A stretch of DNA of 64,000 bases from Myxococcota bacterium (GCA_035453905.1 DAOTDZ010000014.1:150452-214451), one strand, 5' to 3'; shown: positions 1,928 through 31,658, counted from the first letter of the stretch. The notes: generated by a model from the sequence alone, not told the origin. Program-made: numbers and translations.

Positions 1928-3781
1928 TCAGCGGGGGTGGCGGGCCAGGTCCCACACCCGGCGCCAGGCAGGGCCGACCGGGTTCGCGGGCACGGCCGGT
2001 GCGTACTGGGCCGGGACGCCGCCGGTCATGGAGGCCAGGTAGCCGGCCACCGCGTACCACAGCTTGATCTCGTGGCCCGCGCCGTCGGTCACCAGGGCCG
2101 GCGCGGCGGGCTGGCCGTTCTGGTCCAGCGGCTGCAGGTTGAAGGACGCCAGGAAGGCCGCGATGTAGGAGGTGGTGGTGAGCTCGACCAGCTCCGTCAT
2201 CGGATCCAGGCTCCAGTCCGGGTTGGCGCTGGCGTCGTAGACCACCGTGCCCGCGTCCGACTCGTCCAGCGCGGTGTAGGTGGTCAGCTTCTTGATGCGC
2301 ATGTACTGCGGGGCGCTGGAGTCGATCTCCATGCGCAGCCCCGAGGTGATCATGAAGTAGTCGTTGTTGGTCATGCCGGCCGAGGCGCTGGTGGCCTCCA
2401 GGATGAGCTTCAGCGAGGCCCAGCTAAGGTAGAACTTCACCAGCGGGTAGCCCAGCCGCCCGTCCGGGCCGATGCCCAGCGGGGTCACGATGTAGGCGTC
2501 CGGCAGGCCCAGCGCGCCGCCCGGGCCGAGCAGCATGTCGTCGCGCACGTCCCCGCCGTTGGAGACCGCGGCGACCTCGGTGCCCGAGGCCCGCCGCGCG
2601 GCGTCCGCCACCAGGTAGCCCAGGTTGTGGGCGTCGAAGTAGGTCCGCTCCAGCGGGAAGCCGGAGGTGGTGAGCGACTGGTCGAACTCGCCCGTGAGGA
2701 ACGCGTCGGCCGCGGGCAGCACCGGGAAGCTCTGCAGCAGCTCCTGCTCGATCGACTGGATGAGCGGGTCGACCAGCGCCGACTTGGCGGGGTCGGCGGC
2801 CAGGCTGTCGTCGATGGCCAGGAGCTCGCCGGTGGCCGCGCGCGCGCCGCCCGCGCGGGTGAGCACCACGTGGGACAGGTAGCGGCCGTAGTCGCCGGCC
2901 TCCAGCGCCCAGGCGGTCTCGCCGTCCGGGCCGGTGATGGCGGCCAGCGACGAGCTCACCGTGTGCTCGTGGCCGGACAGCGCCAGGTCGATGCCCCGCA
3001 CCTGGCGGAGCAGCTCGATGGTGTCGCCCGCCGGCTGGCCCGCCTGCTCGGTGATGCCCATGTGCGCCAGCACGATGACCACGTCCGCGCCCTCGGCGCG
3101 CATCTCGTCCACCACGGCCTGGACCTCGGGCGCGAGCTCGGCGATGGTGGTGGCGAAGGTGACCGGCACCGCGTTGTAGGTGACCGTGCTGTAGGACACC
3201 GGCCCGAGCACGCCGGTGATGCCCACGCTCACCCCGCCCACCTCCCGCAGGATGTAGGGGTGGATGCGCTTGCCGGCCACGCCCTCGGGGCCGTACAGCG
3301 CCTCCAGGGCGTCGTCCCCGGCGTCGTCGGCGTCGAAGCGGATGTTGGCGCACACCAGCGGGACGCCGGGCGCCTGCGAGGCGTCGATCATGCCCACCAG
3401 CCCCGCGGGGCCCCAGTCGAGCTCGTGGTTGCCGATGGCGGCCGCGCTGAAGCCGAGCTCGGCCAGCAGATCGAGGTCGCCGCCCGCGCCGTTCGCCCCG
3501 CCGAACAGGGTGCCCATCTTGAAGTCGCCGGCGTCGAGCAGCAGCTTGGCGGGGGAGGGGTCGTCGGCGTAGAGCTTGGCCCAGCGGCCCATGCCCCCCA
3601 GGGTGCCGTCGCCGATGGCCCCGGTGTAGCTCATGTTCGGCTGGCCGAGCCAGTGGGAGTGGCGATCGTTCTGGTGGTAGACCACGAGCTCGTAGTCCTT
3701 GGGCGAGTCCTCGGAGCAGGCCGCGCCGGCCAGGAGGGTGAGCGCCAGGGTGGAGACCGGGATCAGGCGACGGATGTTCAT
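1928..3781 (-). CDS. Bifunctional metallophosphatase / 5'-nucleotidase lipoprotein (UshA-like)
   Basis: Metallophosphoesterase motifs (GNHE, GHEH) and a 5'-nucleotidase C-terminal domain. Start MNIRRL has GAGGAGG with a 5-nt spacer. Lipobox LLAGAAC. Confidence 0.8.
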   Translation of the reverse strand: MNIRRLIPVSTLALTLLAGAACSEDSPKDYELVVYHQNDRHSHWLGQPNMSYTGAIGDGTLGGMGRWAKLYADDPSPAKLLLDAGDFKMGTLFGGANGAGGDLDLLAELGFSAAAIGNHELDWGPAGLVGMIDASQAPGVPLVCANIRFDADDAGDDALEALYGPEGVAGKRIHPYILREVGGVSVGITGVLGPVSYSTVTYNAVPVTFATTIAELAPEVQAVVDEMRAEGADVVIVLAHMGITEQAGQPAGDTIELLRQVRGIDLALSGHEHTVSSSLAAITGPDGETAWALEAGDYGRYLSHVVLTRAGGARAATGELLAIDDSLAADPAKSALVDPLIQSIEQELLQSFPVLPAADAFLTGEFDQSLTTSGFPLERTYFDAHNLGYLVADAARRASGTEVAAVSNGGDVRDDMLLGPGGALGLPDAYIVTPLGIGPDGRLGYPLVKFYLSWASLKLILEATSASAGMTNNDYFMITSGLRMEIDSSAPQYMRIKKLTTYTALDESDAGTVVYDASANPDWSLDPMTELVELTTTSYIAAFLASFNLQPLDQNGQPAAPALVTDGAGHEIKLWYAVAGYLASMTGGVPAQYAPAVPANPVGPAWRRVWDLARHPR

Positions 3782-4879: not shown

Positions 4880-4945
4880 GTGGCACCTCCTTGTCCGGCC
4901 CCGTATCTTGGGAGATCCGCGGGCCGGATGCAAGCGGACCGCGGC

Positions 4946-5000
4946 CGGGGCGTTGGCAGACCCGCCGTGTGTGAATCTCTCAGGGCAGCCTTCGAGGAGT
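4946..5000 (+). repeat. REP-like intergenic element, family 1 (GGCGTTGGCAGACCCGCCGTGTGTGAATCTCTCAGGGCAGCCTTCGAGG)
   Basis: One of five copies in the window (also 10693, 14208, 27073 and 27281). Imperfect hairpin potential. Confidence 0.6.
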
Positions 5001-5127
5001 CCTGCCTCCAACTAGACACCGGCCACTCGCAACCAGCCACTGGCTTCTCGCCACCTCCTTCCTTTCCTTCACCCCGGGGAGGTACAATCGCGCAAGGCCT
5101 GACCCGGCACGCTCAGGAGGGATTCCG

Positions 5128-7896
5128 ATGGGGATCATGCGGTTCGCAACCCGCCTCCGCCCGATCTGCGCGATCCTCGGCCTGGCCCTGTGCCTGGGGG
5201 CCCTCCTCGCCTGCCCGGGTTGCGTCGACTACCAGGGGAACGTCCCCTGCGAGTCCGACTCCGACTGCGGCAGGGCGCAGGCCTGCGACCTGACCCAGGG
5301 AATCTGCCGTCCCATGTCCTGCGTCCTGGCCTGCCAGGGCCGCGAGTGCGGGCCCGACGGCTGCGGCGGGACATGCGGCGCCTGCGCCGCGGGGGAGACC
5401 TGCAGCCAGGGCGGACAGTGCCTCGGCGCATGCTCGCCCGACTGCTCGGCCCGCGAGTGCGGGCCCGACGGCTGCGGCGGGAGCTGCGGCACCTGCCCGG
5501 CAGGAGAAGCTTGCACCCCTGTGGGCGTGTGCGGCGGCGACTACCCCTGCTGCGAAACCCGGGAGTGCGGGCCGGATCCGTGCATGGGTGTGTCGTGCGG
5601 CGCCTGCCTGCCGGGCGAGACATGCACCCCTGGGGGCATGTGCGAGGGCGACTACCCCTGCTGCGGGATCCGCGAGTGCGGGCCCGATCCGTGCGCGGGC
5701 GCCCCCTGCGGCACCTGCGGGATGGACGAGTGGTGCGACACGAGCGGCCAGTGCCAGGGCGTCTGCACCCCCGACTGCACCGGGAAGAGCTGTGGGGACG
5801 ACGGCTGCGGCGGGAGCTGCGGCACGTGTGCGTACGATGAATGGTGCAGTGCGGCAAGCCAATGCAGGGCGGCCGCCCAGGTGGGGGAGGCCTGCCCCTT
5901 CGAGAGCATCAACCCGGACGCCGGGGTGTGCGCCGAGGGCTTGACCTGCCTGGGCCTTGCGCCCGAACCCTACAGCTCTCCGTGCTCGGCCGACGAGGAC
6001 TGTCTGCTGTATCTCCAGGATTTCCATAACCCGGATTGTTCTGACGGTGGATGTGGGGGTTCCTTCTGCGTCGCCGATTGCGTGGCGGAGGACTGCGACT
6101 CAGGTTTCAGCCCACAAATGGTCGGGGGTCATTGCTACTGCATCCCGGCGAACGCAGGCCCGAACGACGGCCAGGTGGGCGACGCATGCTACTTCGATCC
6201 AGTCCATACCGAGGAGGGCGCCTGCGTCCCAGGCCTCGAGTGCTTTGGCATGGGGCCGTACTGGAACGAGATGCCCTGCACGGATGACTCCGACTGCTTG
6301 GCCTTCCTCCCTGCCTCCTACAACCCAGAGTGTGTCGCTGGCAGTTGCGGCGCGTCTCTCTGCGTCGGCCCTTGTGCCGCAGACGGCTCCTGCGCCGACG
6401 GCCTACAGCCGATTGTGATGGGCAGCGAGTGCTTCTGCATTCCCAGCGACCAGATCGGCACTGGCCAGCCCGGCGACCCCTGCCCCTTCGAGCAGGTCCA
6501 TGCGGACGACGGGCCGTGCGCTCCGGACCTCGTGTGCCTGGGCAATGCCCAGGGCGCTGAAGCCTGCGCGACCGTCGCAGACTGCGTGAACTTCGGCTAC
6601 GACCAGGTCTACAACCCGGAGTGCGTCCAAGGCTTCTGCGGCTTCTCCTTCTGCGCCGGCCTCTGCGTGAACGGCGGCCACTGCGACCCCGGTTTCCTGC
6701 CGATCGAATCGGAGGGCACCTGCTACTGCATCCCGGACACCTCGGAGGCCACCGGTCAGGCCGGCGATCCCTGCCCCTTCGACCAGGTCAACCCGACCGC
6801 GACCGAGTGCGCTGTCGGCCTGACCTGTCTGGGGATCCTGCCGGATCCGAGCTCGACTCCCTGTCCCGCGGGCGACGCGGACTGTCTGGCTTTCTACGCG
6901 GCCGCCTGGAACCCCGACTGCGCAGTGGGCGGCTGCGGCGTGTCCTTCTGTTCGGCAACGTGCACCAACGGCGCCTGCCCCGCGGGCTTCGGGACCTATG
7001 ACATCATGGACACCTGCTACTGCATCCCCCTCCAGCAGCCGTCCCCCTCCAGAATCGCCTACGTCACCAACCGGAGCGGCCGGTACGAGATCTGGGTGAT
7101 GACCGGGGACGGCCTCGGGCAGCGGCAGCTCACCTTCAGCGCGCCCGACGAAACCCAGCGCATGGGCGCGCACTCGCCGCGCTGGTCGCCGGACGGCGCC
7201 CGGATCGCCTTCCTGTACGGCGCCGGGGACCCGACGCCGGACAGCACGCGGACCATGGTGATGAACGCCGACGGGACGGACCTGCGGGAGGTCACCCACG
7301 CGATCAGGACCTACTGGGAGCTGATTGCCTGGAGCCTGGACGGGACCGCGATCCTCCAGGAGCTCGACCTCTTCATGAACTCTCAGATCCTGGGCGTCGA
7401 CCTGGCGACCGGCGCGACCCGGGTGGTCCTGGACGACACCCCGGACGGCTACCTCATCGCGGTCTCCCCGGACGTCAACCCGGTGGACGCCACGCTCGCG
7501 TACATCGCCTACAACACCGGCGGCGACTGGGGCGGCTTGCGCCTCCGCGCCATGGACGGCGGCGCCGAGACGACCCTCCTCGGCGCCGGGGTCGGGGTCG
7601 CCTCGCCGAGGTGGTCGCCGACCGGCGAGGAGATCGCGTACTCGCTCGAGGACTCCACGACAGGCAGCTTCAAGGTGATCGCCCGGGCTGGCGGGCCGCC
7701 CCGGACCATCACCTTGGACCCTCCGGTCGACACCAGGGCGGTCAGCGTGGACTGGACCGAGGACGGGTTCATCTTCAGGCGGTCCGCGGGCTCCGGCGGT
7801 GAGATCTGGGCCTGCGGGGCGGACGGCAGCGGGGCTCACGCGCTCCTCGCGGACGGCTGGAACAACCTGGAGCCGGACTGGAGGAGCGCGCCGTAG
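5128..7896 (+). CDS. Cys-rich repeat lipoprotein with C-terminal TolB-like (PD40) beta-propeller. About nine RECGPDGCGGSCG(T/A)C repeats, then five repeats of about 75 aa of the form GDxCxFDxVN...CLG...NPDC...CG.SFC.
   Basis: Signal peptide LLACPGC. GGAGGG 6 nt upstream of the ATG. Tandem Cys repeats are visible at the protein and DNA level. The C-terminus carries PD40-type repeats (SPRWSPDG x2). Confidence 0.8.
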   Translation: MGIMRFATRLRPICAILGLALCLGALLACPGCVDYQGNVPCESDSDCGRAQACDLTQGICRPMSCVLACQGRECGPDGCGGTCGACAAGETCSQGGQCLGACSPDCSARECGPDGCGGSCGTCPAGEACTPVGVCGGDYPCCETRECGPDPCMGVSCGACLPGETCTPGGMCEGDYPCCGIRECGPDPCAGAPCGTCGMDEWCDTSGQCQGVCTPDCTGKSCGDDGCGGSCGTCAYDEWCSAASQCRAAAQVGEACPFESINPDAGVCAEGLTCLGLAPEPYSSPCSADEDCLLYLQDFHNPDCSDGGCGGSFCVADCVAEDCDSGFSPQMVGGHCYCIPANAGPNDGQVGDACYFDPVHTEEGACVPGLECFGMGPYWNEMPCTDDSDCLAFLPASYNPECVAGSCGASLCVGPCAADGSCADGLQPIVMGSECFCIPSDQIGTGQPGDPCPFEQVHADDGPCAPDLVCLGNAQGAEACATVADCVNFGYDQVYNPECVQGFCGFSFCAGLCVNGGHCDPGFLPIESEGTCYCIPDTSEATGQAGDPCPFDQVNPTATECAVGLTCLGILPDPSSTPCPAGDADCLAFYAAAWNPDCAVGGCGVSFCSATCTNGACPAGFGTYDIMDTCYCIPLQQPSPSRIAYVTNRSGRYEIWVMTGDGLGQRQLTFSAPDETQRMGAHSPRWSPDGARIAFLYGAGDPTPDSTRTMVMNADGTDLREVTHAIRTYWELIAWSLDGTAILQELDLFMNSQILGVDLATGATRVVLDDTPDGYLIAVSPDVNPVDATLAYIAYNTGGDWGGLRLRAMDGGAETTLLGAGVGVASPRWSPTGEEIAYSLEDSTTGSFKVIARAGGPPRTITLDPPVDTRAVSVDWTEDGFIFRRSAGSGGEIWACGADGSGAHALLADGWNNLEPDWRSAP

Positions 7897-7983
7897 GTTC
7901 GCCGGGCCCCCCGGGGCCGTAGGTGCCAGCCGCCTGCAAGGCTGGGTGGTCCGCTGCACACGCAACCACCAGCGAGGGTCGCG

Positions 7984-8958
7984 ATGAAGGGCAAGTCGGT
8001 CGATCTGCTGATGAAGGCGAAGCGTCGGCTCGACCCGCGGGCCCACACGGCCTGGACCGAGTTCCACCCGTTCCGCTCGGCCGAGGCGCGCGCGGAGTAC
8101 TTCGCCTCTCTCGAGCCGCGCGAGCGGCGCTGGCCGATCCCCTCGGAGGACCGCGTCGTCGAGACCTCGTGGGCGCGGACCTTCGTCCGCGTGGGCGGAT
8201 TGGCCGGCGGGCCGCCGCTGGTGCTGATGCACGGCGCGGCCACCAACTCCCTGAGCTGGGAGTGCAACATCCAGGGGCTGTCGGAGCGTCATCGCACCTA
8301 CGCGATCGACAACCCCTACGACGTCGGCCGCAGCGTCTACGCGCGCGACGCGAGCAGCGTCGACGACTACGTGGCCTGGCTGGACGAGACGCTCTCCGCG
8401 CTCGGGCTCGCGGGCGGGATCGATCTGGTCGGCATGTCCTACGGCGCGTGGCTGACCGCGAAGTACACGCTCGCCCACCCCGAGCGCGTCGCCCGCGCGG
8501 TGTTGCTGGTCCCGGCCCTGACGGTGCAGAACGTGCGCTTCGTCTGGGTGGTGCGCTGCCTGTTGTCGATGCTCGATCGGAGGCTCTCGCAGAACTTCGC
8601 GCGCTGGACGCTCCGCGACGCCTACGAGCAGGGCCCGCGCTCCAGGCAGCTCGTCGAGGAGATCGCCGACGACGGCCTCGCCCTGTCGAAGAAGTGCATC
8701 TCCCGGCACGTGGTGCTCCCCACCAGGCTCGAGGACGCCGAGTGGCGGCGCCTCACCACCCCGATGCTGGTGCTCGTGGGCGAGCACGAGAAGCACTACC
8801 ACCCGGCGAAGGCGGTCGCCCACCTCGCGCGCGTGGCGCCCCGGGTCAAGGTGGAGGTCATCGCCGGCGCCGGGCACGATCTCGCGGCGGTCTTCCCCGA
8901 GCTGGTGAACCGGAAGGTGCTCGCCTTCCTCGAGGAGGGGCGGGCCGATTCGCGGTAG
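7984..8958 (+). CDS. Alpha/beta-hydrolase fold protein (esterase/lipase-like)
   Basis: HGAATNSLSW, nucleophile elbow GMSYGA, C-terminal His (AGHD). GAGGG 5 nt upstream of the ATG. Confidence 0.8.
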   Translation: MKGKSVDLLMKAKRRLDPRAHTAWTEFHPFRSAEARAEYFASLEPRERRWPIPSEDRVVETSWARTFVRVGGLAGGPPLVLMHGAATNSLSWECNIQGLSERHRTYAIDNPYDVGRSVYARDASSVDDYVAWLDETLSALGLAGGIDLVGMSYGAWLTAKYTLAHPERVARAVLLVPALTVQNVRFVWVVRCLLSMLDRRLSQNFARWTLRDAYEQGPRSRQLVEEIADDGLALSKKCISRHVVLPTRLEDAEWRRLTTPMLVLVGEHEKHYHPAKAVAHLARVAPRVKVEVIAGAGHDLAAVFPELVNRKVLAFLEEGRADSR

Positions 8959-9122
8959 GGGCCACCAGACACTCGCGACTCGTCACCCCCTTCGGGGGCT
9001 GCTCCGCTTCGCTCGAGGACTCGCTCGCTCCGCGGCTCGCCACCCGCCACCTCCTTCTTTCCTTCCTCCCGTGGAGGTACAATCGCGGAAGGCCTGGCCC
9101 GGCGCTCTCAGGAGGGACTCCG

Positions 9123-10676
9123 ATGGGGATCACGCGGTTCGCAACCCGCTCTCGTCCGGTCCGCGCGACCCTCGGACTGGCCCTGTGCCTGGGGGCCGTC
9201 CTCGCCTGCCCGGGCTGCGTCGACTACCAGGGGACCGTCCCCTGCGAGTCCGACTCCGACTGCGGCAGGGCGCAGGTCTGCGACCTGACCCAGGGGATCT
9301 GCCGTCCCATGTCCTGCATCCAGGCCTGCCAGGACCGCGAGTGCGGGCCCGACGGCTGCGGCGGGAGCTGCGGCGCCTGCGCCGCGGGGGAGACCTGCAG
9401 CCAGGGCGGACAGTGCCTCGGCGCATGCTCGCCCGACTGCTCGGCCCGCGAGTGCGGGCCCGACGGCTGCGGCGGGAGCTGCGGCACCTGCCCGGCAGGA
9501 GAAGCTTGCACCCCTGTGGGCGTGTGCGGCGGCGACTACCCCTGCTGCGAAACCCGGGAGTGCGGGCCGGATCCGTGCATGGGTGTGTCGTGCGGCGCCT
9601 GCCTGCCGGGCGAGACATGCACCCCAGCGGGCATGTGCGAGGGCGAAGCCCCCTGCTGCGGAAACCGGGAGTGCGGGCCGGATCCGTGCGCGGGTGTTTC
9701 GTGCGGTGAATGCATGGCGGGCATGCCATGCACCCCATCTGGCATTTGCATGGGCGATGCCCCCTGCTGCGAAAACCGGGAGTGCGGGCCGGATCCGTGC
9801 CTGGGACTGTCCTGCGGCACCTGCGGGATGGACGAGTGGTGCGACGCGAACGGCCGGTGCCAGGGCGTCTGCACCCCCGACTGCACCGGCCGCCAGTGCG
9901 GGGACGACGGCTGCGGCGGGAGCTGCGGCACCTGCGCGTACGATGAATGGTGCAACGACCTCGGCATCTGCGTCTGGGAATGCCAGCCCGACTGCACCGG
10001 CAAGGAGTGCGGGCCCGACGGCTGCGGCGGGAGCTGCGGCACCTGCGCCCCGATGCAGGTGTGCGACGCGACCGCCCGGTGCGTGCTCCCGGGCAACCAG
10101 CAGGCCGGCGAGCCCTGCGACTTCGACACGGTGAACGTGGGCGCCGGGGAGTGCATGACCGGCCTGGTCTGCCTGGGTGTCCTTCCGGACCCCACCATAG
10201 GGGCCTGCACCACCGACGGCGACTGCGTCAGTTTCCTGGACCCCCTCTGGAACCCGGACTGCGTGGGCGGCTACTGCGGCGCCTCCTTCTGCTCGCCGGA
10301 GTGCGAGAACGGCGCCTGCGACCCTGGCTTCCAGCCGCAGTACATCAGCGGCCTGTGCATGTGCATCCCTTACTGGCAGGACCCTGACCCGGGCCTGCCC
10401 GGCGACCCCTGCGCGTGGGACCAGGTGAACTCCGAGGCGGGCAACTGCGAGGCCAGCCTGCTCTGCCTGGGTATCCCCCCGGACCCGCTCGAGACGCCCT
10501 GTCCCGCGGGGGACGGGGACTGTCTGGCTTTCTACGCGGCCGCCTGGAACCCCGACTGCGTGGACGGCGGCTGCGGCGTGTCCTTCTGCTCGGAATCGTG
10601 CACCAACGGCGGCTGCATTACTGGCTTCGAGCCGATCGACATTTCGGGCGACTGCTACTGCGTCCCCCTCCCGTAG
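9123..10676 (+). CDS. Cys-rich repeat lipoprotein, shorter paralog of 5128..7896 (no PD40 propeller)
   Basis: Start MGITRFATRS is an internal ATG of read-through track ORF 7923..10676. Its 5' leader and RBS are near-identical to those of 5128. Same CGPDGCGGSCG repeats. Confidence 0.8.
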   Translation: MGITRFATRSRPVRATLGLALCLGAVLACPGCVDYQGTVPCESDSDCGRAQVCDLTQGICRPMSCIQACQDRECGPDGCGGSCGACAAGETCSQGGQCLGACSPDCSARECGPDGCGGSCGTCPAGEACTPVGVCGGDYPCCETRECGPDPCMGVSCGACLPGETCTPAGMCEGEAPCCGNRECGPDPCAGVSCGECMAGMPCTPSGICMGDAPCCENRECGPDPCLGLSCGTCGMDEWCDANGRCQGVCTPDCTGRQCGDDGCGGSCGTCAYDEWCNDLGICVWECQPDCTGKECGPDGCGGSCGTCAPMQVCDATARCVLPGNQQAGEPCDFDTVNVGAGECMTGLVCLGVLPDPTIGACTTDGDCVSFLDPLWNPDCVGGYCGASFCSPECENGACDPGFQPQYISGLCMCIPYWQDPDPGLPGDPCAWDQVNSEAGNCEASLLCLGIPPDPLETPCPAGDGDCLAFYAAAWNPDCVDGGCGVSFCSESCTNGGCITGFEPIDISGDCYCVPLP

Positions 10677-10692
10677 CCGTCCCCTGCAGGCA

Positions 10693-10742
10693 GGACGTTG
10701 GCATACCCTGCGTGTGCGAATCTCTCAGGGCAGCCTTCGAGG
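10693..10742 (+). repeat. REP-like intergenic element, family 1 copy
   Basis: Near-identical to the copy at 4946..5000. Confidence 0.6.
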
Positions 10743-10821
10743 GGTTTGCCGATACCCGACCCACGATCTATCGAGGAACCCGGCTACCCGCGGCCACCCG
10801 CGGCACTCGGGTGGCACCTGC

Positions 10822-10866
10822 GAAGGCCTCTTCTTCGCGGCGTCATGCGGAAGATCCGGTCCCACG
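10822..10866 (+). repeat. Intergenic repeat, family 2 (GAAGGCCTCTTCTTC(G/C)CGGCGTCATGCGGAAGATCCGGTCCC); second copy at 14137..14180
   Basis: Roughly 44-nt near-identical sequences in two different intergenic regions. Confidence 0.55.
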
Positions 10867-10968
10867 AGAGGTACCGGCTGCCTGAAGATGTGCAGATTGC
10901 GCTGCGGGTCTGAACGCGCGAAAATTGTCCAGGGGAGAGCATCGTCCCTGTGAGAATGGAGGTTACCC

Positions 10969-11706
10969 ATGCCAGCGATCCGTGGGGCCTTGGCGATGGG
11001 GCTCGCCCTCTCTTTGCTCTCATTCTCCGGCTGCGGTTAGGGTGCTTCCCTCTCGGAGATTCGCATCGAGCTCCAGGACCACGGCAGCGCCTCCTGCCTG
11101 GGCGCGGCCCACCTGATGATCCGCGCCCAGAACTCCCACGACACCCTGGAGCAACACGAGTACGGCAAGTTCTTCCAGACGAACCCCCTGGCCTGCGCGG
11201 GCGGCACGATCCTGGTCTCGGGCCTCGAACCAGACCACGAGTTCCGGGTCTCGGTCAGCCTGTGGGACTCGACCACCGACATGGATGGCCTGCTGGCCGA
11301 GGGCTCGACCTCCGCCTTCGAGCTCGAGCCGGGCGCCTCCCTACCCATCGCGGTAGACCTGTCGCGCACCGACGCTCGTCCGGGCACGATCAGCTTCGCG
11401 TCCCCGCCGGCCGACTGGTCCCAGGCCGCCGCGGCAGAGGCGTTTCGCTTCACCATCACCGCGGACGGGGAGACCGTGCCGCAGCGCTCTGGCCACCTCG
11501 ACGTCCAGCCCGAGCGCCTCACGGATCCGTTCCCGCTGATCATCTCCGACCTGCCCTTGACAGCCGAGCTTACCGAGTACCACGTGGTGGTGGAGGCACT
11601 GGGCAGGAGCACGCAGGGTCTCGACCCGCCCGTGCTCCACTCCTGGACCGCCACCGCTTTCCTGGGCGGCCCGGCGGTCAACCCTGGAGATTCGATCCTC
11701 AAGTAG
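10969..11706 (+). pseudogene. Lipoprotein gene interrupted by an in-frame TAG two codons after the lipobox Cys (MPAIRGALAMGLALSLLSFSGCG*GASLSEIRIELQDH...); remaining frame 11041..11706 is GC3-rich and open
   Basis: ATG at 10969 has GGAGG with a 6-nt spacer. There is no start-like codon with an RBS after the TAG until the track M at 11116. Coding statistics continue on both sides of the TAG. Confidence 0.5.
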
Positions 11707-11846
11707 GAGAGGGCCCAGCCCGCGAGTGCCAGCCGCCTGCTATCGCCGCGCTACCATCCGAAGTACAATGAGGGAGCCAGACGGCAGGCGAACGAGAGGG
11801 CGTGCGTGGAGGTCGGGATCCTGGAGATGCGGAGGAGGCGAATTTG

Positions 11847-12512
11847 GTGAGGGCTACAGTCTTGGCTCTTGTGATTCTTCTGGCCACGGGCTGTGCCGAG
11901 CAGGTTGCGGGCGTCGATGGTGGCACAAATGGAAACGGCTACTGTTCTTATCGGCTTGCCATCGATGAACTGCTACTATTTTCGGACTATGTAGCTCTTG
12001 GCAGACCGGTAGAAGCAAGGAAAGTGCTTTTCGAGGCGTTAGCTACTGCAGTTATCCCGCCTGAGGACTTCTTTTTTTGCACTATCTTCAGTGTGGCAAC
12101 CATTGACACGCTCAACGTGGCTGTAAGACAAGACGACAATGAAGAGGCAACACCGCCTTGGGGCGATGAATTGGCGACCTACCATGATGAATGCATGCGA
12201 ATTGCAGAATTTGAAAGAGGAACACAAAATCTACTTGCATATCCGACCGCACTCTTTTTTGCGCAGAACAACATATACCTGAATCGGCCATATCTTATTG
12301 AGATGCTGGAGGTCGTGGACTCGAAGGTAAAAGTTGGACCCTCGAATACCAGATGCGGTGTAGCGCTGGAAATCGAGGTGACTGAGCTGTTCGATGCCGT
12401 TGCGGTGGGCGACTTTTCTGCGCTGTTGGAGGCCGATACGTATCCTTGTCGGCAGAATGATGGTGCGGCCATTGATGACCCTGACGGCTCCGATGGATCC
12501 GAAGGGAAGTAG
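11847..12512 (+). CDS. Hypothetical lipoprotein, low-GC (foreign composition)
   Basis: GTG start with GGAGGAGG 8 nt upstream. MRATVLALVILLATGC has a lipobox. GC is clearly lower than the flanking DNA. Confidence 0.6.
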   Translation: MRATVLALVILLATGCAEQVAGVDGGTNGNGYCSYRLAIDELLLFSDYVALGRPVEARKVLFEALATAVIPPEDFFFCTIFSVATIDTLNVAVRQDDNEEATPPWGDELATYHDECMRIAEFERGTQNLLAYPTALFFAQNNIYLNRPYLIEMLEVVDSKVKVGPSNTRCGVALEIEVTELFDAVAVGDFSALLEADTYPCRQNDGAAIDDPDGSDGSEGK

Positions 12513-12613
12513 AGAGACATCCCCCGCCGAAAGGACCCCCGCAGGCAGGTGCCAGCCACACTAGATGGGCATCCGGGAATCGGGGCTGAATGACGAGATT
12601 GGAGTTCGAGGTC

Positions 12614-13528
12614 ATGAAATCGATCATCCATGCTGGGTGGTATGCGGCGCTTGCGATACCCTTGCTGATGGTTGGCGCAGAATCCTGTACTGGAGGAGCA
12701 GGTCAAGGGCGCTACTCTGGCGGCATGGGAGGGGCGAAGATCGTGGGGAGAGGATTGGAGTTCGATTGCCCTGAGTATCAATATGGCGACTGGGAGAACC
12801 CCCAGAAATTCTATCTATTTCCGAGAATCATAAAGAGTGGCGAGAGAGTAAAAATCTATCTGGCAGTGGAAGATGATGTGTTGATTAGAGAAAAGAATGC
12901 GAATGGAGAAGCAGAATTTTCTGTAGAAGTACTGCATGAGAAGGCATCACTCACCAGGGTGGGCTTTGCTGATGACCTGGGCAGCTTGGCGGGAACCATG
13001 TATTGGGCCCCGGTATTTCTGGGAACGGTTGATGTGGAGACCGATGTGCAGGGGTGGGTGGATGTGAACTATTTCAATGGGAAACAGGTGATAGGTACCA
13101 GGAGCATTCTGGTGACAGATGGCACCAAGGAGGAGTCTTCCTGGACATCAAAGGTGGTCTGTCGACTCGATTGTGGAAAATCTGTGCAGTTGGACCACGT
13201 CCTTGTCTACGTCGACCGCACCCCTGTCGAGTATTTCACCAAGATCGTGGCAGCCACGGGTGGCACCCTCGGCAGGATAGTATCTGTTGGATTCGGACAA
13301 GAGCCGTATGGGAATTGCTATCCTAGTTGCTATTTTCCATACCAGGGCGTTGCGTTGGACATCATTTTGCCTGAAGCGGGATTTCACACCGCCTGTGGAG
13401 CGCTAGATTCAGTGGAGAAGTTGGGAATTCCTGGAGTGAAGGTCGCAATGCCTACTAAAGAATTCGGCACTGTCGATTTGAACCCGCAATGCAGAACGAT
13501 GGAGTTTCCCGTTGGCGACTGCCACTAG
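12614..13528 (+). CDS. Hypothetical secreted protein, low-GC
   Basis: ATG with GGAG upstream. N-terminal hydrophobic signal segment (MKSIIHAGWYAALAIPLLMVGA). Low GC and AT-rich codons. Confidence 0.55.
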   Translation: MKSIIHAGWYAALAIPLLMVGAESCTGGAGQGRYSGGMGGAKIVGRGLEFDCPEYQYGDWENPQKFYLFPRIIKSGERVKIYLAVEDDVLIREKNANGEAEFSVEVLHEKASLTRVGFADDLGSLAGTMYWAPVFLGTVDVETDVQGWVDVNYFNGKQVIGTRSILVTDGTKEESSWTSKVVCRLDCGKSVQLDHVLVYVDRTPVEYFTKIVAATGGTLGRIVSVGFGQEPYGNCYPSCYFPYQGVALDIILPEAGFHTACGALDSVEKLGIPGVKVAMPTKEFGTVDLNPQCRTMEFPVGDCH

Positions 13529-13573
13529 TGGGCTGAGGAGAGAGGGCTGGCGCGGGGCGGCGGAGCAGGCAGC

Positions 13574-13918
13574 TCAGTGCAGGCGCGCGGGTGGCTCCTC
13601 CGCCTTGACCGCGTTCAGGTCCGCCTTGAGCTCGGAGATGTCGGCCTTGACGATGACCATGTCCGCCTTGAGGCCCGCCACGTCGGTCTTCAGCACGGAC
13701 ACGTCGGTCTTCAGCACGGACACGTCCTGCTTGAGGACCCGCACGTCGCCTGCCAGGTCGAGCACCGCGACCTCGAGCCGATCGAAGCGCGCGTCCTGCT
13801 GGTCGAAGCGCCTGTCGTGCCGGGCGAGGTGCTCGCCGTTCATCTGCACGCCTTCGGCCACGGCCTGGATGGAGGACTGGATGTTCTCCAGGAGAATGGC
13901 GACCTGATCCTGTTCCAT
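13574..13918 (-). CDS. Small coiled-coil repeat protein (DUF1640 / XhlA-like heptad repeats DVxVLKxD)
   Basis: Start MEQDQVAIL has GGAGG upstream. Repeats DVRVLKQDVSVLKTDVSVLKTDVAGLKADMVIVKADISELKAD. The DNA contains a perfect 21-bp tandem duplication. Confidence 0.5.
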   Translation of the reverse strand: MEQDQVAILLENIQSSIQAVAEGVQMNGEHLARHDRRFDQQDARFDRLEVAVLDLAGDVRVLKQDVSVLKTDVSVLKTDVAGLKADMVIVKADISELKADLNAVKAEEPPARLH

Positions 13919-14207
13919 GGCGCCTCCAGGGTAGCGGGCCTCGCGGGTGGAATCAACCCTCGCGTGCCCTCCCACGGACGGCGTTCCCGAGCAAGAACAA
14001 TGCTACGATGCTGGATCCACGAATCCGGGGGGTTACGTTGCCAGGCGGCCCTCGGCGCTGCGCGGGTGACCGGATTTCCCGGACACCGTGACCGGAAATC
14101 GGACACACGCGCCAGGTGCCAGCCACCCGGAGCCCGGCGAAGGCCTCTTCTTCCCGGCGTCATGCGGAAGATCCGGTCCCTTCCTGAGGTGCCACCCACC
14201 TGCAGCC

Positions 14208-14256
14208 GGGGCGTTGGCAGGCCGTCCGTGCGTGGATCGCCCAGGGCATTTCATGG
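14208..14256 (+). repeat. REP-like intergenic element, family 1 copy (diverged)
   Basis: GGCGTTGGCAGGCCGTCCGTGCGTGGATCGCCCAGGGCATTTCAT. Confidence 0.5.
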
Positions 14257-14391
14257 AGGCGAAGGACAGGCGGGAAGGGCAGGGGGCGAGGTGCCAGGCA
14301 GGTTCCAGCCCCCCTCCGGCCGGAACTTCAGGCCTCCGTGGTCCCGTCGCGCCACGCGCCGTCTCGTTTCATGGCGGATAACAATCACGAG

Positions 14392-15006
14392 CTAGTCAAT
14401 GAAAAAGCACATTCTGCGCCCTCCCTGGACTGGGATGCAGGGAAGGCCGTAGGTCGCGTTTCCTGGATACTTGCAATCATCGCAGTCTGATTGGTCTTCG
14501 CAAAGGTGCGAACAGAATGCTTGTGGGTTTTGTGGGTCACCATCGCAAAAAAGACCTTCTCCACAGGCTGACTGCTGTTGGTCAGTACAGGGTGTGCCAC
14601 AGGTGCCTTCTCGTGAACCACATTCTGCCCCGAGAGCTATCTTCTCGCAGAACGACGGTTCACCAAGTTGGCTGACGCAGCACATAGGACTTCCGTCATC
14701 TAGTATGTCCAAGCAGTCAGAATCGGCATCACATGGAATGGTACAAAGACCCATGGAGGGCCCAAAGAGGCCATACTTGCAGAATTGTGATTCACAGTCT
14801 TCGTTTTTGGCGCATAAGTCGCCAATACCCGCAGCGTTTCCATCGTTGCCGTCTTGACCATCCATCCCAGAATCAGGAGGCGATTCCAGATCGCTGCATC
14901 CAAGGAACAGCCATTGAATGGCAACTATTGAGACAAGCAGAGAGACTCTTCGAACTACAATATAGGGTTCGAGGAAGGTCGATCTGCTGAGACTCTTGAA
15001 CCCCAT
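14392..15006 (-). CDS. Cys-rich secreted lipoprotein, low-GC
   Basis: MGFKSLSRSTFLEPYIVVRRVSLLVSIVAIQWLFLGC has a lipobox. Many CxxxxC pairs. Low GC. Confidence 0.55.
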   Translation of the reverse strand: MGFKSLSRSTFLEPYIVVRRVSLLVSIVAIQWLFLGCSDLESPPDSGMDGQDGNDGNAAGIGDLCAKNEDCESQFCKYGLFGPSMGLCTIPCDADSDCLDILDDGSPMCCVSQLGEPSFCEKIALGAECGSREGTCGTPCTDQQQSACGEGLFCDGDPQNPQAFCSHLCEDQSDCDDCKYPGNATYGLPCIPVQGGRRMCFFID

Positions 15007-15067
15007 GGCTACCTCGCCCACGCGCCAGGTGCCAGCCACCCGGAGCCGGGCTCCTCGAGGCTCGCGC

Positions 15068-15697
15068 CTAGCGCGGCTTCCGGCGCAGCAGCCCCAGCCC
15101 GATCACCAGCCCCAGCACCAGCCCGCCGCCCTGGCCCGCGGTGGAGTCGGAGCAGTCCTCCGTGTCGTCGCAGGTGTGCCAGTAGCCCGCCTCGATGGTG
15201 TGAAAATGGCAGGACTGGTCGAGCGCCTGCGCGAGGACGAACTCCACCGGGGCGGAGTAGAGGTCGCAATCCACCTCCGTCCCGTCCACCCTGAAGCTCG
15301 CCAGGAGGCAACCGTCACTCTTGCTGATCACGAAGACCCCGCGCTCGCCCACGGCCAGGGGAGTGCAGCGGTTGCACCCGGATTCGCACGGCGTCCCTGC
15401 ACCCCAGGAGAACTCCACCGGGAAGTCCACGGCCGGGCACTCGAGCCCGCCATCGCAGTAGATCGGCGTCTGGAGGAGGCTGATGCTCAGCCCGTCCGTC
15501 TGGACCGCCGTCACCTCGGCCTGGGCCACCATGGAATTCTCCTGCCATTCGAAGCAGCAGGGCGCGCCGGGGCACATCGCGGCCGCGCTGGAGGGAAGGA
15601 CGACCAGCAGCAGCGCGGACAGGAGCCCGGCCAGCGCGACACCCTCGGCCGCGCGCGCCGCGCGGCAGACCCCTCGAGGAAATCCCTTCTCCCGCAT
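15068..15697 (-). CDS. Secreted Cys-containing protein with C-terminal MYXO-CTERM-type sorting tail (…DCSDSTAGQGGGLVLGLVIGLGLLRRKPR)
   Basis: Start MREKGF has GGAGG with an 8-nt spacer. Signal peptide. C-terminal Cys, Gly-rich stretch, TM helix, then RRK, as in the MYXO-CTERM domain. Confidence 0.6.
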   Translation of the reverse strand: MREKGFPRGVCRAARAAEGVALAGLLSALLLVVLPSSAAAMCPGAPCCFEWQENSMVAQAEVTAVQTDGLSISLLQTPIYCDGGLECPAVDFPVEFSWGAGTPCESGCNRCTPLAVGERGVFVISKSDGCLLASFRVDGTEVDCDLYSAPVEFVLAQALDQSCHFHTIEAGYWHTCDDTEDCSDSTAGQGGGLVLGLVIGLGLLRRKPR

Positions 15698-15925
15698 GTC
15701 CCCGACCTCCGTGAAGATGATTCCCGACCAGGGGAGGCTACCAGATAGAACGCCTGAAACCAAGGGGCGCGCCCGACCCGCAGGCGCCAGCCGTCGCGGG
15801 GGCGGACCCATGCGTCCGCCCCTGTGGGACTCCGGACCGATTCTCTGTAGGGGCAGACCCAACTTTCTGCCCCGGCGGCTGCACCAGCAGGCAGGGTTTC
15901 GGGAGGGCGCAGGGCACAGTCACGG

Positions 15926-17205: not shown

Positions 17206-17363
17206 TTCCCCCGTGCTCCCGCCCGGTTGACGCTCGAACCCCAGCGTGATTTGCTCGCCCCTGACAGCCAGCGCAGCCCGCGCCGCGTGGTCGGGAGCGG
17301 GGATCTTCCGCGCGCCTGGCGCGTCTTGAGGCCTGGCGGCCTGCCGCCGAGGGAGGGTCCGAC

Positions 17364-20300
17364 ATGCACACGGGTTCCCAGGGCAAGGGCTTCTTCCGGG
17401 GTTCCAGGGGCGCGCTCCGCGGCGCCCTCCTGCTCGCGCTGGCGGGCACGCTGGCGCTGCCGCTGCTGGCCGCGAACTGCGGAGAGCCGGTGCGCTCGCA
17501 ACCGCTCCAGGCCCGCCTCGAGCTGGCCGCGGGCGAGGTGAGCGTGGAGCAGGGCGGGCAGACCGCGCTGGCCCAGTCCGGGCACGCGCTGCTGGCCGAC
17601 GCGGGGGTGCGCACCGGCCAGGGGGCGCGCGCGCTGGTGCGGCTCTCCAACGGCGCGGCCATCTTCCTGCGGGGCGACACCCGGCTGCGGCTGGCCGCCG
17701 GCGCGGTCAGCCTGGAGGCGGGCGAGGTGTGGGTGGACGCCCCGGAGTCGGAGCGCGACGCCCCGGTGCAGAAGGTCGGCGAGGTGACCGTGTACGGCGT
17801 GGACGCCGGGCTCGACATCCGGCGCACCGACGCGGGCGGCGCGGTGGTGTACGTGGCCCGCGGGGTGGCCACCATCAGCGCCCCGGGCGGCCGGGTGGAG
17901 CTCAGGGCCGGCGAGCAGGCCGTGGTCGAGGGCGCGGCCGCGCCGGCGGTCACCCCGGTGGCCTTCTGGGACGACTGGACCGGCGGCATGGCCGACAACC
18001 GCGTGGCGGGCGGGCTCAGCGGGGCCGGGGCCGGGCGCGTCTACGGCGTGGATCTGTCCGACCGCAGCGGCGCCCCGGCCAGGCCCCTGGAGATCAGCCG
18101 GCAGGCCATCCGGGCGGTGATCCGCGACGGGCTGGCCGAGACCGAGGTGGACCAGACCTTCTTCAACCCCGGCGAGCGGGCGGTCGAGGGCTGGTACTGG
18201 TTCGCCGTGCCCGAGGACGCGGTGGTGACCGGCTTCGCGGTCGAGACCGACGGCGTGCTGGTGGACGGCGAGTTCATCGAGCGCCGGGCGGCCTCGGCCG
18301 GCTACGACCGGGCCGTGGCCACCGGCCACGAGCCGGCCATCCTGGAGTGGGTGGACAGCCGCACCTTCCGCGCGCGCATCTTCCCCGTGCCCGCGGTCGG
18401 CACGCGCCGGGTGGTGCTGCGTTACTTGCAGATGCTGCCGGTGGTGGCCGGGACCTTCCGCTACCTCTACCCGCTGCAGAGCCCGGAGCCGGTGCGCATC
18501 GGCGAGTTCAGCCTGGGCGTGGACCTCGGCCCGGCCGGCAAGGACATGAGCCTGACCACGCTGGCCGACGCACTGGTCGAGGACGGCGGCAGCCGGGTGG
18601 TCATGCGCCGCTCGGGCTACGTGCCGCGGGCCGACTTCCTGCTCGAGGCGACCCTCGACCAGAGCCCCGAGGCGGCCCGCGCCTGGCGCTTCAGCCCCGG
18701 GGGCGAGGCGGCCGACTACGTGATGGTGCGCTACACGCCGGACTTCGAGTGGAAGCCGGGCGCCGCGGGCAAGGCCGCGGTGGTGGTGGTGGTGGACACC
18801 TCGGCCGGGGCCGACGAGGCCAGCCGCAGCCTGAAGGTCACGGCCGCGGAGTCGATCCTGCGGGCGCTGGCGGTGGACGATCGCTTCGCGCTGGTCGCCC
18901 TCGACGTGAGCCCGGTGGTGCTGCACCCCGCAGAGGGCCTGGCGGCCGCGACCGATCAGGAGATCGCCACGGCGCTGGAGCGGCTGTCCGAGCACGCGGC
19001 CGGCGGCGCGACCGATCTGGGCGCCATGTTCGACGTGACGCTGCCGCTCCTGCACGGGGCGGAGCAGCCCGCGGTGATCTACGTGGGCGACGGCCAGGCC
19101 ACCTCGGGCGAGACGGGCGGCGAGGCCCTGGTCGCGCGGCTGCGCCGGGCGCTGGCCACCTCGCGGGCGCGCCTGTTCACCGTCGGTGTGGGCCCGCAGG
19201 CCAGCCAGGCGCTGCTCGGCTCGCTGGCGGACCACGGCGGCGGCCAGGTGTTCCAGATCGACGAGCCCGAGGCGGCCAGCGAGCGCGCGCTGTCGCTGGT
19301 GGCGGCGCTGAAGACGCCCACGCTGACCGACTTCGAGATCGACCTCGGCGCGGCGCTGGACGAGGTGTTCGTCAGCGCCCAGGGCAAGGTGCGCCAGGGC
19401 GAGGAGGTGCGGGTGCTGGCCCGCACCCACCACCGGCTGCCCGGGAGCCTGAAGGTCAAGGGGCGGGTGAACGGCGAGGCGTTCAGCCGCGAGTACGGCA
19501 TCCAGGAGGAGAGCGGCCCGCTCTCGAGCTTCGTGCCCAAGCTGTGGGCGGCCGACTACCTGCGCCGGGTGCTCGGCTCGGTGGCCGACCCCGACGAGCA
19601 GCGCGGCCGGGTGCTGCAGCTCGGGGTGGAGTACGGGCTGCTGACTCCCTTCACCAGCATCCTGGCGCTGGAGAGCGAGGCCGCCTACCAGCAGCAGGGC
19701 ATCCCGCGCCTGCGCTCGCCGCTGCGGGGGGTAAGGCTGTCCGCGCTCCTGGAGCGCGAGGACGGCCGCCTGGCCGCGCTCCAGCGCCTGTCGAACTCGG
19801 TGGGCTTCGGCTGCGCCCTGGAGAGCCCCCAGGAGTCGATGCCGGCCGCGCAGCTCGCGCCGGCGCCCGTGGAGCAGCAGAAGATGGCCGGCCACCGCGC
19901 GATGCGGGACTTCGCCGAGAGCGAGGCCCGCGCCCCGGCCCCCGCGCCGGCCGCGCCCTCGCTGGCGGCGGAGGGCTACGGCGGCGCGCCCGGCGGCGCG
20001 CTGGGCGGCCTGTCCGGCGGGGACGTGGCTCTGGCCAAGCCGGGGCCGGCCCCGGTCGCCAAGGCCGAGCCGGCCCGGGAGGAGGCCCGGGGCGGGGAGC
20101 TGGACGACGGCCGGGGGGGCATCGGCTCGCTCGGCCGGCCCCCGCGCGGGCGGCCGGCGCCCGAGCTGCTGACCTGCTCGGACGCGGCCGCGCGGCCGCT
20201 GCGCGAGCGGGTGATCCTGTGGAGGAAGCGGCTGCGGAGCGCGGCGGACGGCTACGGGCTGGTCGCCCAGTACCAGGCCGTGCGGGCCGCTTGCGAGATC

Positions 20301-27022: not shown

Positions 27023-27072
27023 CCTCCCTGCGAGGCACCATCCAACTACCATCCAGGCGTTGGCTGACCTTC

Positions 27073-27130
27073 CCCTGAGAGAATGCCCTGAGCGAATCAC
27101 ACACGCAGGGTCTGCCAACGTCAGGACGAG
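27073..27130 (-). repeat. REP-like intergenic element, family 1 copy (inverted orientation); second partial copy at 27281..27335
   Basis: Reverse complement matches CGTCCTGACGTTGGCAGACCCTGCGTGTGTGATTCGCTCAGGGCATTCTCTCAG. Confidence 0.6.
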
Positions 27131-27354
27131 GACCCCATCTCGGAAGAGCCCTTCGCGGGAGTCTCCCTTCCGGTCCTCGAAACTCGCGGATCGGTCCCGC
27201 GCAGGCTTCGGCGTCCAGTGCTCAGGCTGCTCACTCCCTCACCTGCGCGGTCGGCTGTGGAGGCTCAGACATCTCGGACCGTCAGGGAGACCCCCGCTCG
27301 GGCACACCCGGAGGGTCTGCCAACGTCAGGACGTGGTCGGGCTTCGGGGGGCGG

Positions 27355-27765: not shown

Positions 27766-27993
27766 CGCTCCGCCTCCCTCCCATCCCCTGGCCCCGACCT
27801 GCAGCATCGCACTACCTCCGACGGAGTAGGAACCAGCCTGGTTCTGTCTTTTTATGTACTGGTTCCGGACCCGCTGCCAAGGGAAAAGATGTCCCCAGGT
27901 GGGGGTGCCGGTGTGACCGGAAAAATCGGACACGGTGGGCGCTCCGGAGGGGAGTCGAGCGCCTAACGCTTTGATCTTCAAGAGGATGCATTT

Positions 27994-31508: not shown

Positions 31509-31658
31509 CCGATTTACGGACACCCCTGCGGACACCTCGCTCCCCCGCCGCCGCGTAACTGCCTGTTTTCCCTGGCCCGGGTCGCTGGCCCGAGGCTTGC
31601 AAGGCAAGCTGGCACCCCGGCGCGGGGCCGGGGCTGGCGCGACCAAGGGAGGTGAGGG

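Follow-up and report, generated by a model that had tools for sequence, protein, structure and literature searches.

A recurring intergenic motif beside low-GC genes of an uncultured Myxococcota bacterium: a probable RayT-associated, REP-like repeat

What is the short motif that recurs between genes, in several cases shortly after a stop codon, in one part of a 64-kb stretch of DNA from a Myxococcota bacterium (DAOTDZ010000014.1:150452-214451, the whole of which is here called the window)? A reading made from the sequence alone had likened it to inter-cassette recombination sites or to a dedicated promoter or extracytoplasmic function (ECF) sigma element. The analysis described here indicates that the motif is probably the core ("M box", GGTGCCAG within AGGTGCCAGCC) of lineage-specific extragenic repeats in uncultured high-GC Myxococcota, resembling repetitive extragenic palindromes (REPs) and associated with a RayT transposase (gene rayT). 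M boxes, short palindromes (H) and a longer repeat (D17) are scattered between genes, singly or in small mosaics and frequently a little beyond a stop codon, and the window holds one mosaic cluster.

The M box in the window

The recurrence is real and non-random, as the sequence-only reading had held. Exact matches to AGGTGCCAGCCRC lie on the plus strand at 7921, 12547, 14114 and 15027, four against 0.02 expected, and none of 100 shuffles gave as many. One mismatch permitted in the 11-mer raises the total to 13 matches (3.6 expected), adding copies at 14187, 14289/14300, 15782 and, on the minus strand, 10809; four of the 13 are unrelated coding repeats at 22 kb. Exact and near-copies together make up 10 sites within 7.9-15.8 kb, all of them intergenic in surroundings that are about 20% intergenic. 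The G-rich strand, here the plus strand, carries nine of the 10, which is compatible with a strand-specific mechanism acting on single-stranded DNA, and the orientation of the box is constant whatever strand the neighbouring genes use. Of the copies originally listed, that placed at 11725 is a degenerate box at 11724-11736, and the second copy of a 29-mer, an exact direct repeat bracketing a low-GC gene, starts at 15019 and not at 15018. The placement 20-35 nt after a TAG stop that had been claimed for every copy holds approximately for three, with gaps of 24 nt (7921), 18 nt (11724) and 34 nt (12547) from the preceding plus-strand TAG. Copy 14114 has no preceding stop, lying 192 nt upstream of a minus-strand gene start, and copy 15027 lies 20 nt from the ATG of the minus-strand gene 14392-15006 and 28 nt past the TAG of the minus-strand gene 15068-15697. 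TAG is a frequent stop codon across the whole window, so the nearness of the copies to it carries no weight. The elements of the window are the following (ORF, open reading frame; L numbers denote metagenomic loci).

7921-7933, plus strand: M box AGGTGCCAGCCGC, lying between gene 5128-7896, whose TAG is 24 nt upstream, and the hydrolase gene 7984-8958, 50 nt downstream
Following 7921-7933, plus strand: potential hairpin CCAGCC-N8-GGCTGG
10809-10819, minus strand: M box variant (AGGTGCCACCC on that strand), the sole minus-strand copy, adjoining a 44-nt repeat
11724-11736, plus strand: degenerate M box GAGTGCCAGCCGC, 18 nt past the TAG of gene 10969-11706, with only GTGCCAGCCGC intact
11847-12512, plus strand: low-GC cassette gene 1 (lipoprotein)
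12547-12559, plus strand: M box AGGTGCCAGCCAC, separating low-GC cassette genes 1 and 2
12585-13528, plus strand: low-GC cassette 2 (ORF 12614-13528)
14066-14106, plus strand: two imperfect palindromes (H), GTGACCGGATTTCCCGGACAC and GTGACCGGAAATCGGACAC, forming with the next M box the module that also makes up the left flank of rayT in relatives
14106-14134, plus strand: 29-mer CACGCGCCAGGTGCCAGCCACCCGGAGCC, an M module with its core at 14114-14126, left member of the direct repeat
14137-14180, plus strand: 44-nt repeat, belonging to the repeat mosaic and 98% identical to 10820-10863
14187-14199, plus strand: M box variant AGGTGCCACCCAC (the AGGTGCCACCC form), fused directly to a D17-type repeat
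14202-14261, plus strand: D17-type repeat (GCGTTGGCAG..CGTGCGTGGATCG..CAGGGCA), of a 60-nt family
14289-14310, plus strand: double degenerate M box AGGTGCCAGGC-AGGTTCCAGCC, immediately after which the homology of cassette 3 to L083 starts
14311-15016, minus strand: low-GC cassette 3 (ORF 14392-15006, Cys-rich secreted protein), 89% identical to L083 in nucleotides
15019-15047, plus strand: 29-mer M module with its core at 15027-15039, right member of the direct repeat, 12 nt from the cassette-3 ATG, 20 nt past the TAG of 15068-15697 (minus strand)
15782-15794, plus strand: degenerate M box AGGCGCCAGCCGT (11-mer match AGGCGCCAGCC), upstream of the minus-strand gene 15068-15697
27913-27933, plus strand: solo H palindrome GTGACCGGAAAAATCGGACAC, intergenic
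31505-31523, plus strand: solo H palindrome GTGACCGATTTACGGACAC, intergenic, upstream of recA

The degenerate copy at 11724 has GTGCCAGCCGCCTGC in common with the copy at 7921. Other D17 copies lie at 4941-5000, 10686-10745, 27072-27122 (minus) and about 27303-27325 (minus), all of them intergenic; the pattern, which can also be written GCGTTGGCAGACCC..CGTGTGTGAATC.CTCAGGGCA, is dispersed between genes, and a D17-like element (GTTGGCAC…CCCTGCG) is found at 4265-4300 of L078. Both copies of the 44-nt repeat are flanked by M boxes, which have inverted orientation at 10.8 kb (GGGTGGCACCT … AGGTACCGGCT) and direct orientation at 14.1 kb, as though the segment or the boxes had been inverted between the two sites.

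A RayT-like transposase and its flanks

The same repeats surround genes for a Y1 transposase in at least five related metagenomic loci. The ORF at 2124-3059 of L212 contains HUH (NHFHLIL) and tyrosine (LRYLLSHG) motifs and has a weak match to PF01797; it has 384 homologs at E<=1e-5, many of which the Joint Genome Institute (JGI) annotation calls "REP element-mobilizing transposase RayT". A family profile built from 40 sequences and compared with the PDB found ISDra2 TnpA (E 1.2e-4) and Escherichia coli TnpA-REP, 4ER8 (E 3e-3), and among the Foldseek hits of the AlphaFold model of one member, P0013 (pLDDT 87.5, pTM 0.85), 4ER8 ranks first (E 1.4e-6, TM 0.66), above the IS608 and ISDra2 transposases. 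The family also possesses a conserved C-terminal extension of about 170 residues.

In L212 the gene stands between inverted M arrays at 1815/1833 (plus) and 3346-3454 (minus), and such inward-pointing arrays are present on both sides of rayT in L222, L227, L230 and L229 as well; in L223 the right-side array is seen, the left having been lost at the contig end, and in L224 the left side only. The left flank runs from an array of C-rich sequence plus (A/T/C)GGTGCC(AG..) through short tandem repeats to one or two palindromes and often another M box, while the right flank is an inverted M array with its boxes pointing toward the gene. The H palindromes are 19-21 nt long, of the form GTGwCCG-(A/T-rich loop)-CGGwCAC. 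The proteins of L222, L223, L227 and L230 are 72-76% identical, that of L224 58%, and that of L229, from an organism of 54% GC, 46%. The box takes the forms AGGTGCC, TGGTGCC and AAGGGTGCC in the RayT clade, and L229, with its distant protein, has a divergent form (CCCCAAGGGTGCC, four times, plus a hairpin); the box therefore drifts with the protein.

Positions 14056-14135 of the window, comprising two palindromes and the 29-mer, align column for column with the rayT-proximal modules. Pairing in the two H stems reaches 91%, compared with 23-44% in slid controls, and six sequences show three compensatory pairs between them. The window contains four H palindromes (14066, 14088, 27913 and 31505; 0.035 expected), all four intergenic; the counts of M and H are those of the 64-kb window. 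Three tandem D17-type copies occupy 4870-5010 of L230, in the left flank of its rayT. Hence M, H and D17 belong to one repeat system, D17 being probably its third component. Also beside rayT in L230, two copies of a 30-nt M module (22 nt exact), at 5175 and 5618, enclose a 421-nt insert of 48-55% GC that holds a minus-strand 107-aa ORF, its ATG 17 nt from the second repeat (12 nt for cassette 3 in the window). These two M-insert-M structures, with the tandem arrays of 29-32 nt period, suggest that the module is duplicated, and possibly also inserted, as a unit.

The window's own organism appears to possess such genes. L224 comes from the same samples as the window, and its tetranucleotide correlation with it, 0.946, is above that between the two halves of the window; it has two M matches, one intergenic and one coding; a solo AGGTGCCAGCCACCTGC lies at 5388, 8 nt past a TAG stop. 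The cassette-2 protein of the window is deposited as HOX45555.1 and HRY95915.1, and within its contiguous accession ranges (HOX42519-46670 and HRY91808-95915), which contain five proteins of the rayT family, lie a P0013-type transposase (HOX43889.1/HRY93537.1) and transposases of a second type, P0006 (HRY95467.1, HRY95311.1, HRY91808.1, HOX42519.1 and HOX46670.1). These shared ranges suggest that the family is multi-copy in the metagenome-assembled genome (MAG) from which the window comes, with at least four genes, one of P0013 type and three of P0006 type. Several rayT contexts are also found in the organism of the L078 type.

Foreign genes at the repeats, and the repeats elsewhere

The claim that several of the flanked genes are of low GC is confirmed: the coding parts of 11847-12512, 12614-13528 and 14392-15006 have 38-58% GC in a window of 71%, though the spacers carrying the M boxes remain GC-rich beside them, and the 29-mer pair encloses 884 nt of 57% GC that include cassette 3. 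Cassette 1 has two homologs, at 37-40% identity, among 1.84 billion representatives; cassette 2 has a single non-self homolog, in L078 (58% identical in amino acids, 71% in nucleotides), and cassette 3 likewise a single one (80% in amino acids), in L083. These homologs occupy operon-like arrangements, that in L078 overlapping, and being translationally coupled to, a peptidase S8 gene and that in L083 sitting 15 nt behind another low-GC gene. DNA homology to L078 extends over 12585-13522 of the window, its left limit 26 nt beyond the M box at 12547, and homology to L083 over 14310-15016, its right limit 2 nt before the 29-mer at 15019. The flanked genes are thus foreign and near-orphan, and their homology with their sole relatives stops at or near M boxes. 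A separate 20-nt exact match (CGAATTTGGTGAGGGCTACA) joins 11839-11858, the start-codon region of cassette 1, to positions 36-55 of L083, which belong to the 3' coding part of the gene that precedes the cassette-3 homolog; the reading frames differ and the flanks are unrelated.

Beyond the window, AGGTGCCAGCC recurs three or four times downstream of the cassette-2 homolog on the contigs that carry it, their host being another high-GC Myxococcota-like organism. When metagenomes were scanned with a 24-mer that covers both sequence types, 13 loci were found in three digester samples; they belong to this second high-GC organism (65-77% GC). Its unit is a module of about 30 nt, made up of a C-rich leader, GTCC, AGGTGCCAGCC and GACTGATGGC, which occurs singly or two to four times in tandem (29-32 nt period) and is followed by a conserved tail of 230-330 nt. 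The loci frequently lie at contig ends, as is expected of a repeat that breaks assemblies. Four or more other organisms or samples have the same core, as does another contig of the window's MAG (the copy at L224 5388). As to specificity, patterns of 14-16 nt gave chance matches among the at least 120 listed, the paired-motif pattern found only pentapeptide-repeat and other coding repeats in viral contigs, and a literature search with the motif sequence returned unrelated primers only. Loci of the L078 type share one homologous gene only with the window (15068-15697, 40% in amino acids); tblastx between them is dominated by high-GC noise.

Several units sit where sequence has been rearranged. 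L078 and L080 differ by a 738-bp cassette, comprising an Rhs fragment and an immunity-like gene, that ends at a unit and is found in a second context in L213/L220. Two units cut short, respectively, an ISL3 transposase gene and an IS66 terminal repeat; the terminal repeats of these insertion sequences (ISs) were considered as the origin of the motif and ruled out, the unit truncating them instead of forming their ends. At 4511-5123 of L078 and 3-938 of L211, units border orphan Rhs/YD-shell C-terminal fragments that are followed by small membrane proteins, an arrangement like that of polymorphic toxins and their immunity proteins. A low-GC island of 4.4 kb in L210 (9257-13679) has inverted M boxes on either side that point outward, and holds a Cys-rich protein, a Gly/Ser-rich repeat protein of 538 aa and an ORF of 282 aa. 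On the left the island cuts short an ISL3 transposase gene; on the right it adjoins a homolog (40%) of window gene 15068-15697, and an M box follows the stop of that homolog at 48 nt (28 nt in the window).

The window itself is 99.95% identical to anaerobic-digester metagenome contigs of 215 and 319 kb and encodes, in keeping with its assignment to the Myxococcota, Cys-rich Dicty_CTDC/MopE proteins, RecA, MreB, PBP2 and, at 51112-53379 (minus), a homolog of the major vault protein (MVP) with MVP shoulder and Vault_3 domains, found here in bacterial DNA together with a large VIT/vWA/TPR protein at 17265-21458 (plus). The lipoprotein gene at 10969-11706 has an in-frame TAG (11038-11040) right after its signal-peptide lipobox (…LSFSGCG*GASLSEIR…), the frame staying open to 11706; this TAG is present in six independent assemblies and is therefore no sequencing error, so that the gene is either a pseudogene or subject to read-through. 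Genes 5128-7896 and 9123-10676 encode paralogous Cys-rich secreted proteins whose 5' regions, about 65 nt of upstream sequence included, are 92% identical (5062-5361 against 9057-9356), one of them extending into a PD40/TolB-like beta-propeller where the other ends. The window and the JGI contig show 10 differences, every one of them in 5439-5555, within this paralog repeat; they probably reflect assembly collapse.

Weighing the readings

If the M box is, as seems probable, the core of a RayT-associated repeat, the transposase would recognise H hairpins and/or M boxes on single-stranded DNA and cut and rejoin there, spreading the repeats in one strand orientation. The repeats would accumulate and recombine inside a variable region, which would account for their presence at the edges of three horizontally acquired low-GC genes; exchange at M boxes could be catalysed by the transposase or be ordinary recombination between dispersed repeats. 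Several observations weigh against this picture. There is no rayT gene in the 64-kb window, and the rayT flanks of the window's organism hold variant cores (CGGTGCCAGCC, AGGTGTCAGCC, TGGTGCCAGCC/GG) rather than exact AGGTGCCAGCC. Outside 7.9-15.8 kb the remaining 48 kb are without M boxes, holding only the unrelated coding repeats at 22 kb, and the density of M boxes in the window is low relative to that of classical REPs. The M core is non-palindromic, most folds of single copies being no better than those of shuffles, so that M itself falls outside the classical definition of a REP as an imperfect palindrome of 20-40 nt, though the H element, with its paired stems and compensatory changes, falls within it. 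The apparent multi-copy state of rayT in the MAG differs from that of domesticated RAYTs, the REP-associated tyrosine transposases, which are single-copy genes (Bertels et al. 2017, PMC5581495). In the GTDB representative set, finally, the 24-mer union pattern gave three single chance hits in unrelated phyla, and neither organism was found. M is thus an atypical REP-like repeat, with a non-palindromic core, modules of about 30 nt that duplicate in tandem, and a multi-copy transposase.

The rival reading nearest to the original suggestion takes the M modules for site-specific recombination sites of an integron-like system, a transposase-driven Myxococcota analogue of integron capture in which a promoterless single-ORF cassette with one M module is excised as a circle, perhaps as a single-stranded intermediate made by a RayT-type HUH enzyme, and reinserted at a different M box to leave M-cassette-M. 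This would explain the structures at 14106/15019 and at L230 5175/5618, which share their geometry (29-nt direct repeats in the window, ATG 12 or 17 nt from the second repeat), and it draws further on the M boxes bounding the L083 homology on both sides, on the tandem duplication of the modules, on cassette genes having been separated from operons within 12-26 nt of their start codons, and on sites that are co-oriented independently of gene orientation. Part of the suggestion stands: the repeats are tied to a transposase, and they lie at the homology breakpoints of three foreign genes, one of which is bracketed by the 29-nt direct repeat. Against it, no integrase, attC site or variation in cassettes was found. 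Pfam scans of 30 ORFs across the window gave no integrase, recombinase, transposase, sigma or anti-sigma factor, so that the linked recombinase or ECF sigma factor that might have been looked for is missing among them, nor is there a tRNA or tmRNA in the window as a target for integration. The presence and absence of cassettes does not vary among 15 contigs from at least seven samples, all of identical arrangement, against the expectation of strain-to-strain differences. The M boxes around cassettes 1 and 2 have only the 11-13-nt core in common, those at the ends of the L210 island are inverted and point outward, and L078 and L080 are 84% identical on one side of the difference and 100% on the other, which looks like exchange between diverged copies of a longer repeat unit and fits homologous recombination. 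Variable islands, moreover, collect repeats and IS remnants in any case, and no IS200/IS605-type enzyme is known to make 30-nt duplications, which also counts against cassette capture. On balance we regard capture of this kind as unlikely.

Far less credit can be given to a transcription signal, be it a promoter read by a dedicated or ECF sigma factor or a regulator site serving the downstream secreted-protein genes. Copies do lie 50-110 nt upstream of three plus-strand genes for secreted proteins or lipoproteins, and a conserved core with variable flanks is what a protein-binding site would show, but the box keeps the same orientation beside plus- and minus-strand genes, which argues against such a signal, and it is also found downstream of convergent genes, in tandem arrays, and, in several organisms, as inverted arrays on both sides of the transposase gene. 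No copy has a bipartite -35/-10 element of fixed spacing, a promoter scan gave no sigma-70-like site, and the 30 ORFs scanned in the window include no sigma or anti-sigma gene; the promoter/ECF-sigma suggestion is rejected. A sigma-54 promoter on the reverse complement (TGGCAC) was also rejected, the spacing to the -12 GC being wrong and varying among copies, as was a coding reading (xGASx peptides, or a minus-strand GTG start), for which frames and contexts differ among copies. Equally improbable is that the copies are mere local segmental duplicates, or a terminator or stabilising hairpin acting in RNA, with no link to mobile DNA. Their confinement to 8 kb of the window, the 29-mer, 44-mer and D17 as local duplicates, and the modest hairpins that copy 1 (7921) and the 15019 copy can form speak for it; the recurrence of the core in other organisms and on L224 contradicts local duplication, and the fold z-scores are mostly non-significant, none of five terminator-like hits in the scan falls at an M box, and Rfam, at gathering and E-value thresholds, has no match in the window region or six related loci.

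The RayT-associated repeat thus preferred has its closest known relatives in the REP/REPIN-RAYT systems (TnpA-REP/YafM, with 4ER8, and the REPINs of Pseudomonas), with which it shares a Y1/HUH transposase whose best structural match is 4ER8, a gene flanked by inverted short repeats that are also dispersed extragenically, typically past stops, and an imperfect palindrome of 19-21 nt among these repeats. It differs from them in its non-palindromic M box in direct tandem modules, in the C-terminal extension and copy number of its transposase, and in repeats that are sparse, clustered and bracket foreign genes. With the IS200/IS605 elements IS608 and ISDra2 it has the transposase fold, catalytic motifs and subterminal hairpins in common; these elements are strand-specific and orientation-biased and lack target duplications of the classical transposase type, a further likeness to the M system. 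Unlike them, it has flanks that are mutual inverted repeats, no tnpB partner, solo repeats that far exceed the genes, and duplications of 29-30 nt around inserts. Integron attC arrays, and clusters of attC sites lacking integron integrases (CALINs), resemble it in having short co-oriented sites between single-ORF cassettes that lack promoters and are atypical in composition, with a site soon after the stop codon and, here, one cassette inverted. Here, however, there is no IntI; the spacers contain no R''/L''-L'/R' palindrome of 55-140 nt (GTTRRRY boxes), no paired inverse core sites and no stable single-strand folds; and what is conserved is a non-palindromic core of 11-13 nt, with no turnover of cassettes among the sampled strains. 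As in bacterial interspersed mosaic elements (BIMEs), distinct short motifs (M, H, D17 and the 44-mer) are combined in varied order and orientation at intergenic sites, though they are unrelated in sequence to the components of enterobacterial BIMEs.

Work on REPs and RAYTs has dealt mainly with Proteobacteria, especially enterobacteria and pseudomonads (PMC5581495). The repeats described here would add a related system in uncultured Myxococcota with a different grammar, in which a non-palindromic box in tandem modules of about 30 nt is combined with a hairpin and with a transposase that has an additional domain at its C-terminus. The M boxes of this system lie exactly at the borders of foreign orphan genes. 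Were they active as joining sites, they would represent a new route of gene capture; if they are inactive, they can still serve to flag variable regions and assembly breakpoints in genomes of this kind.

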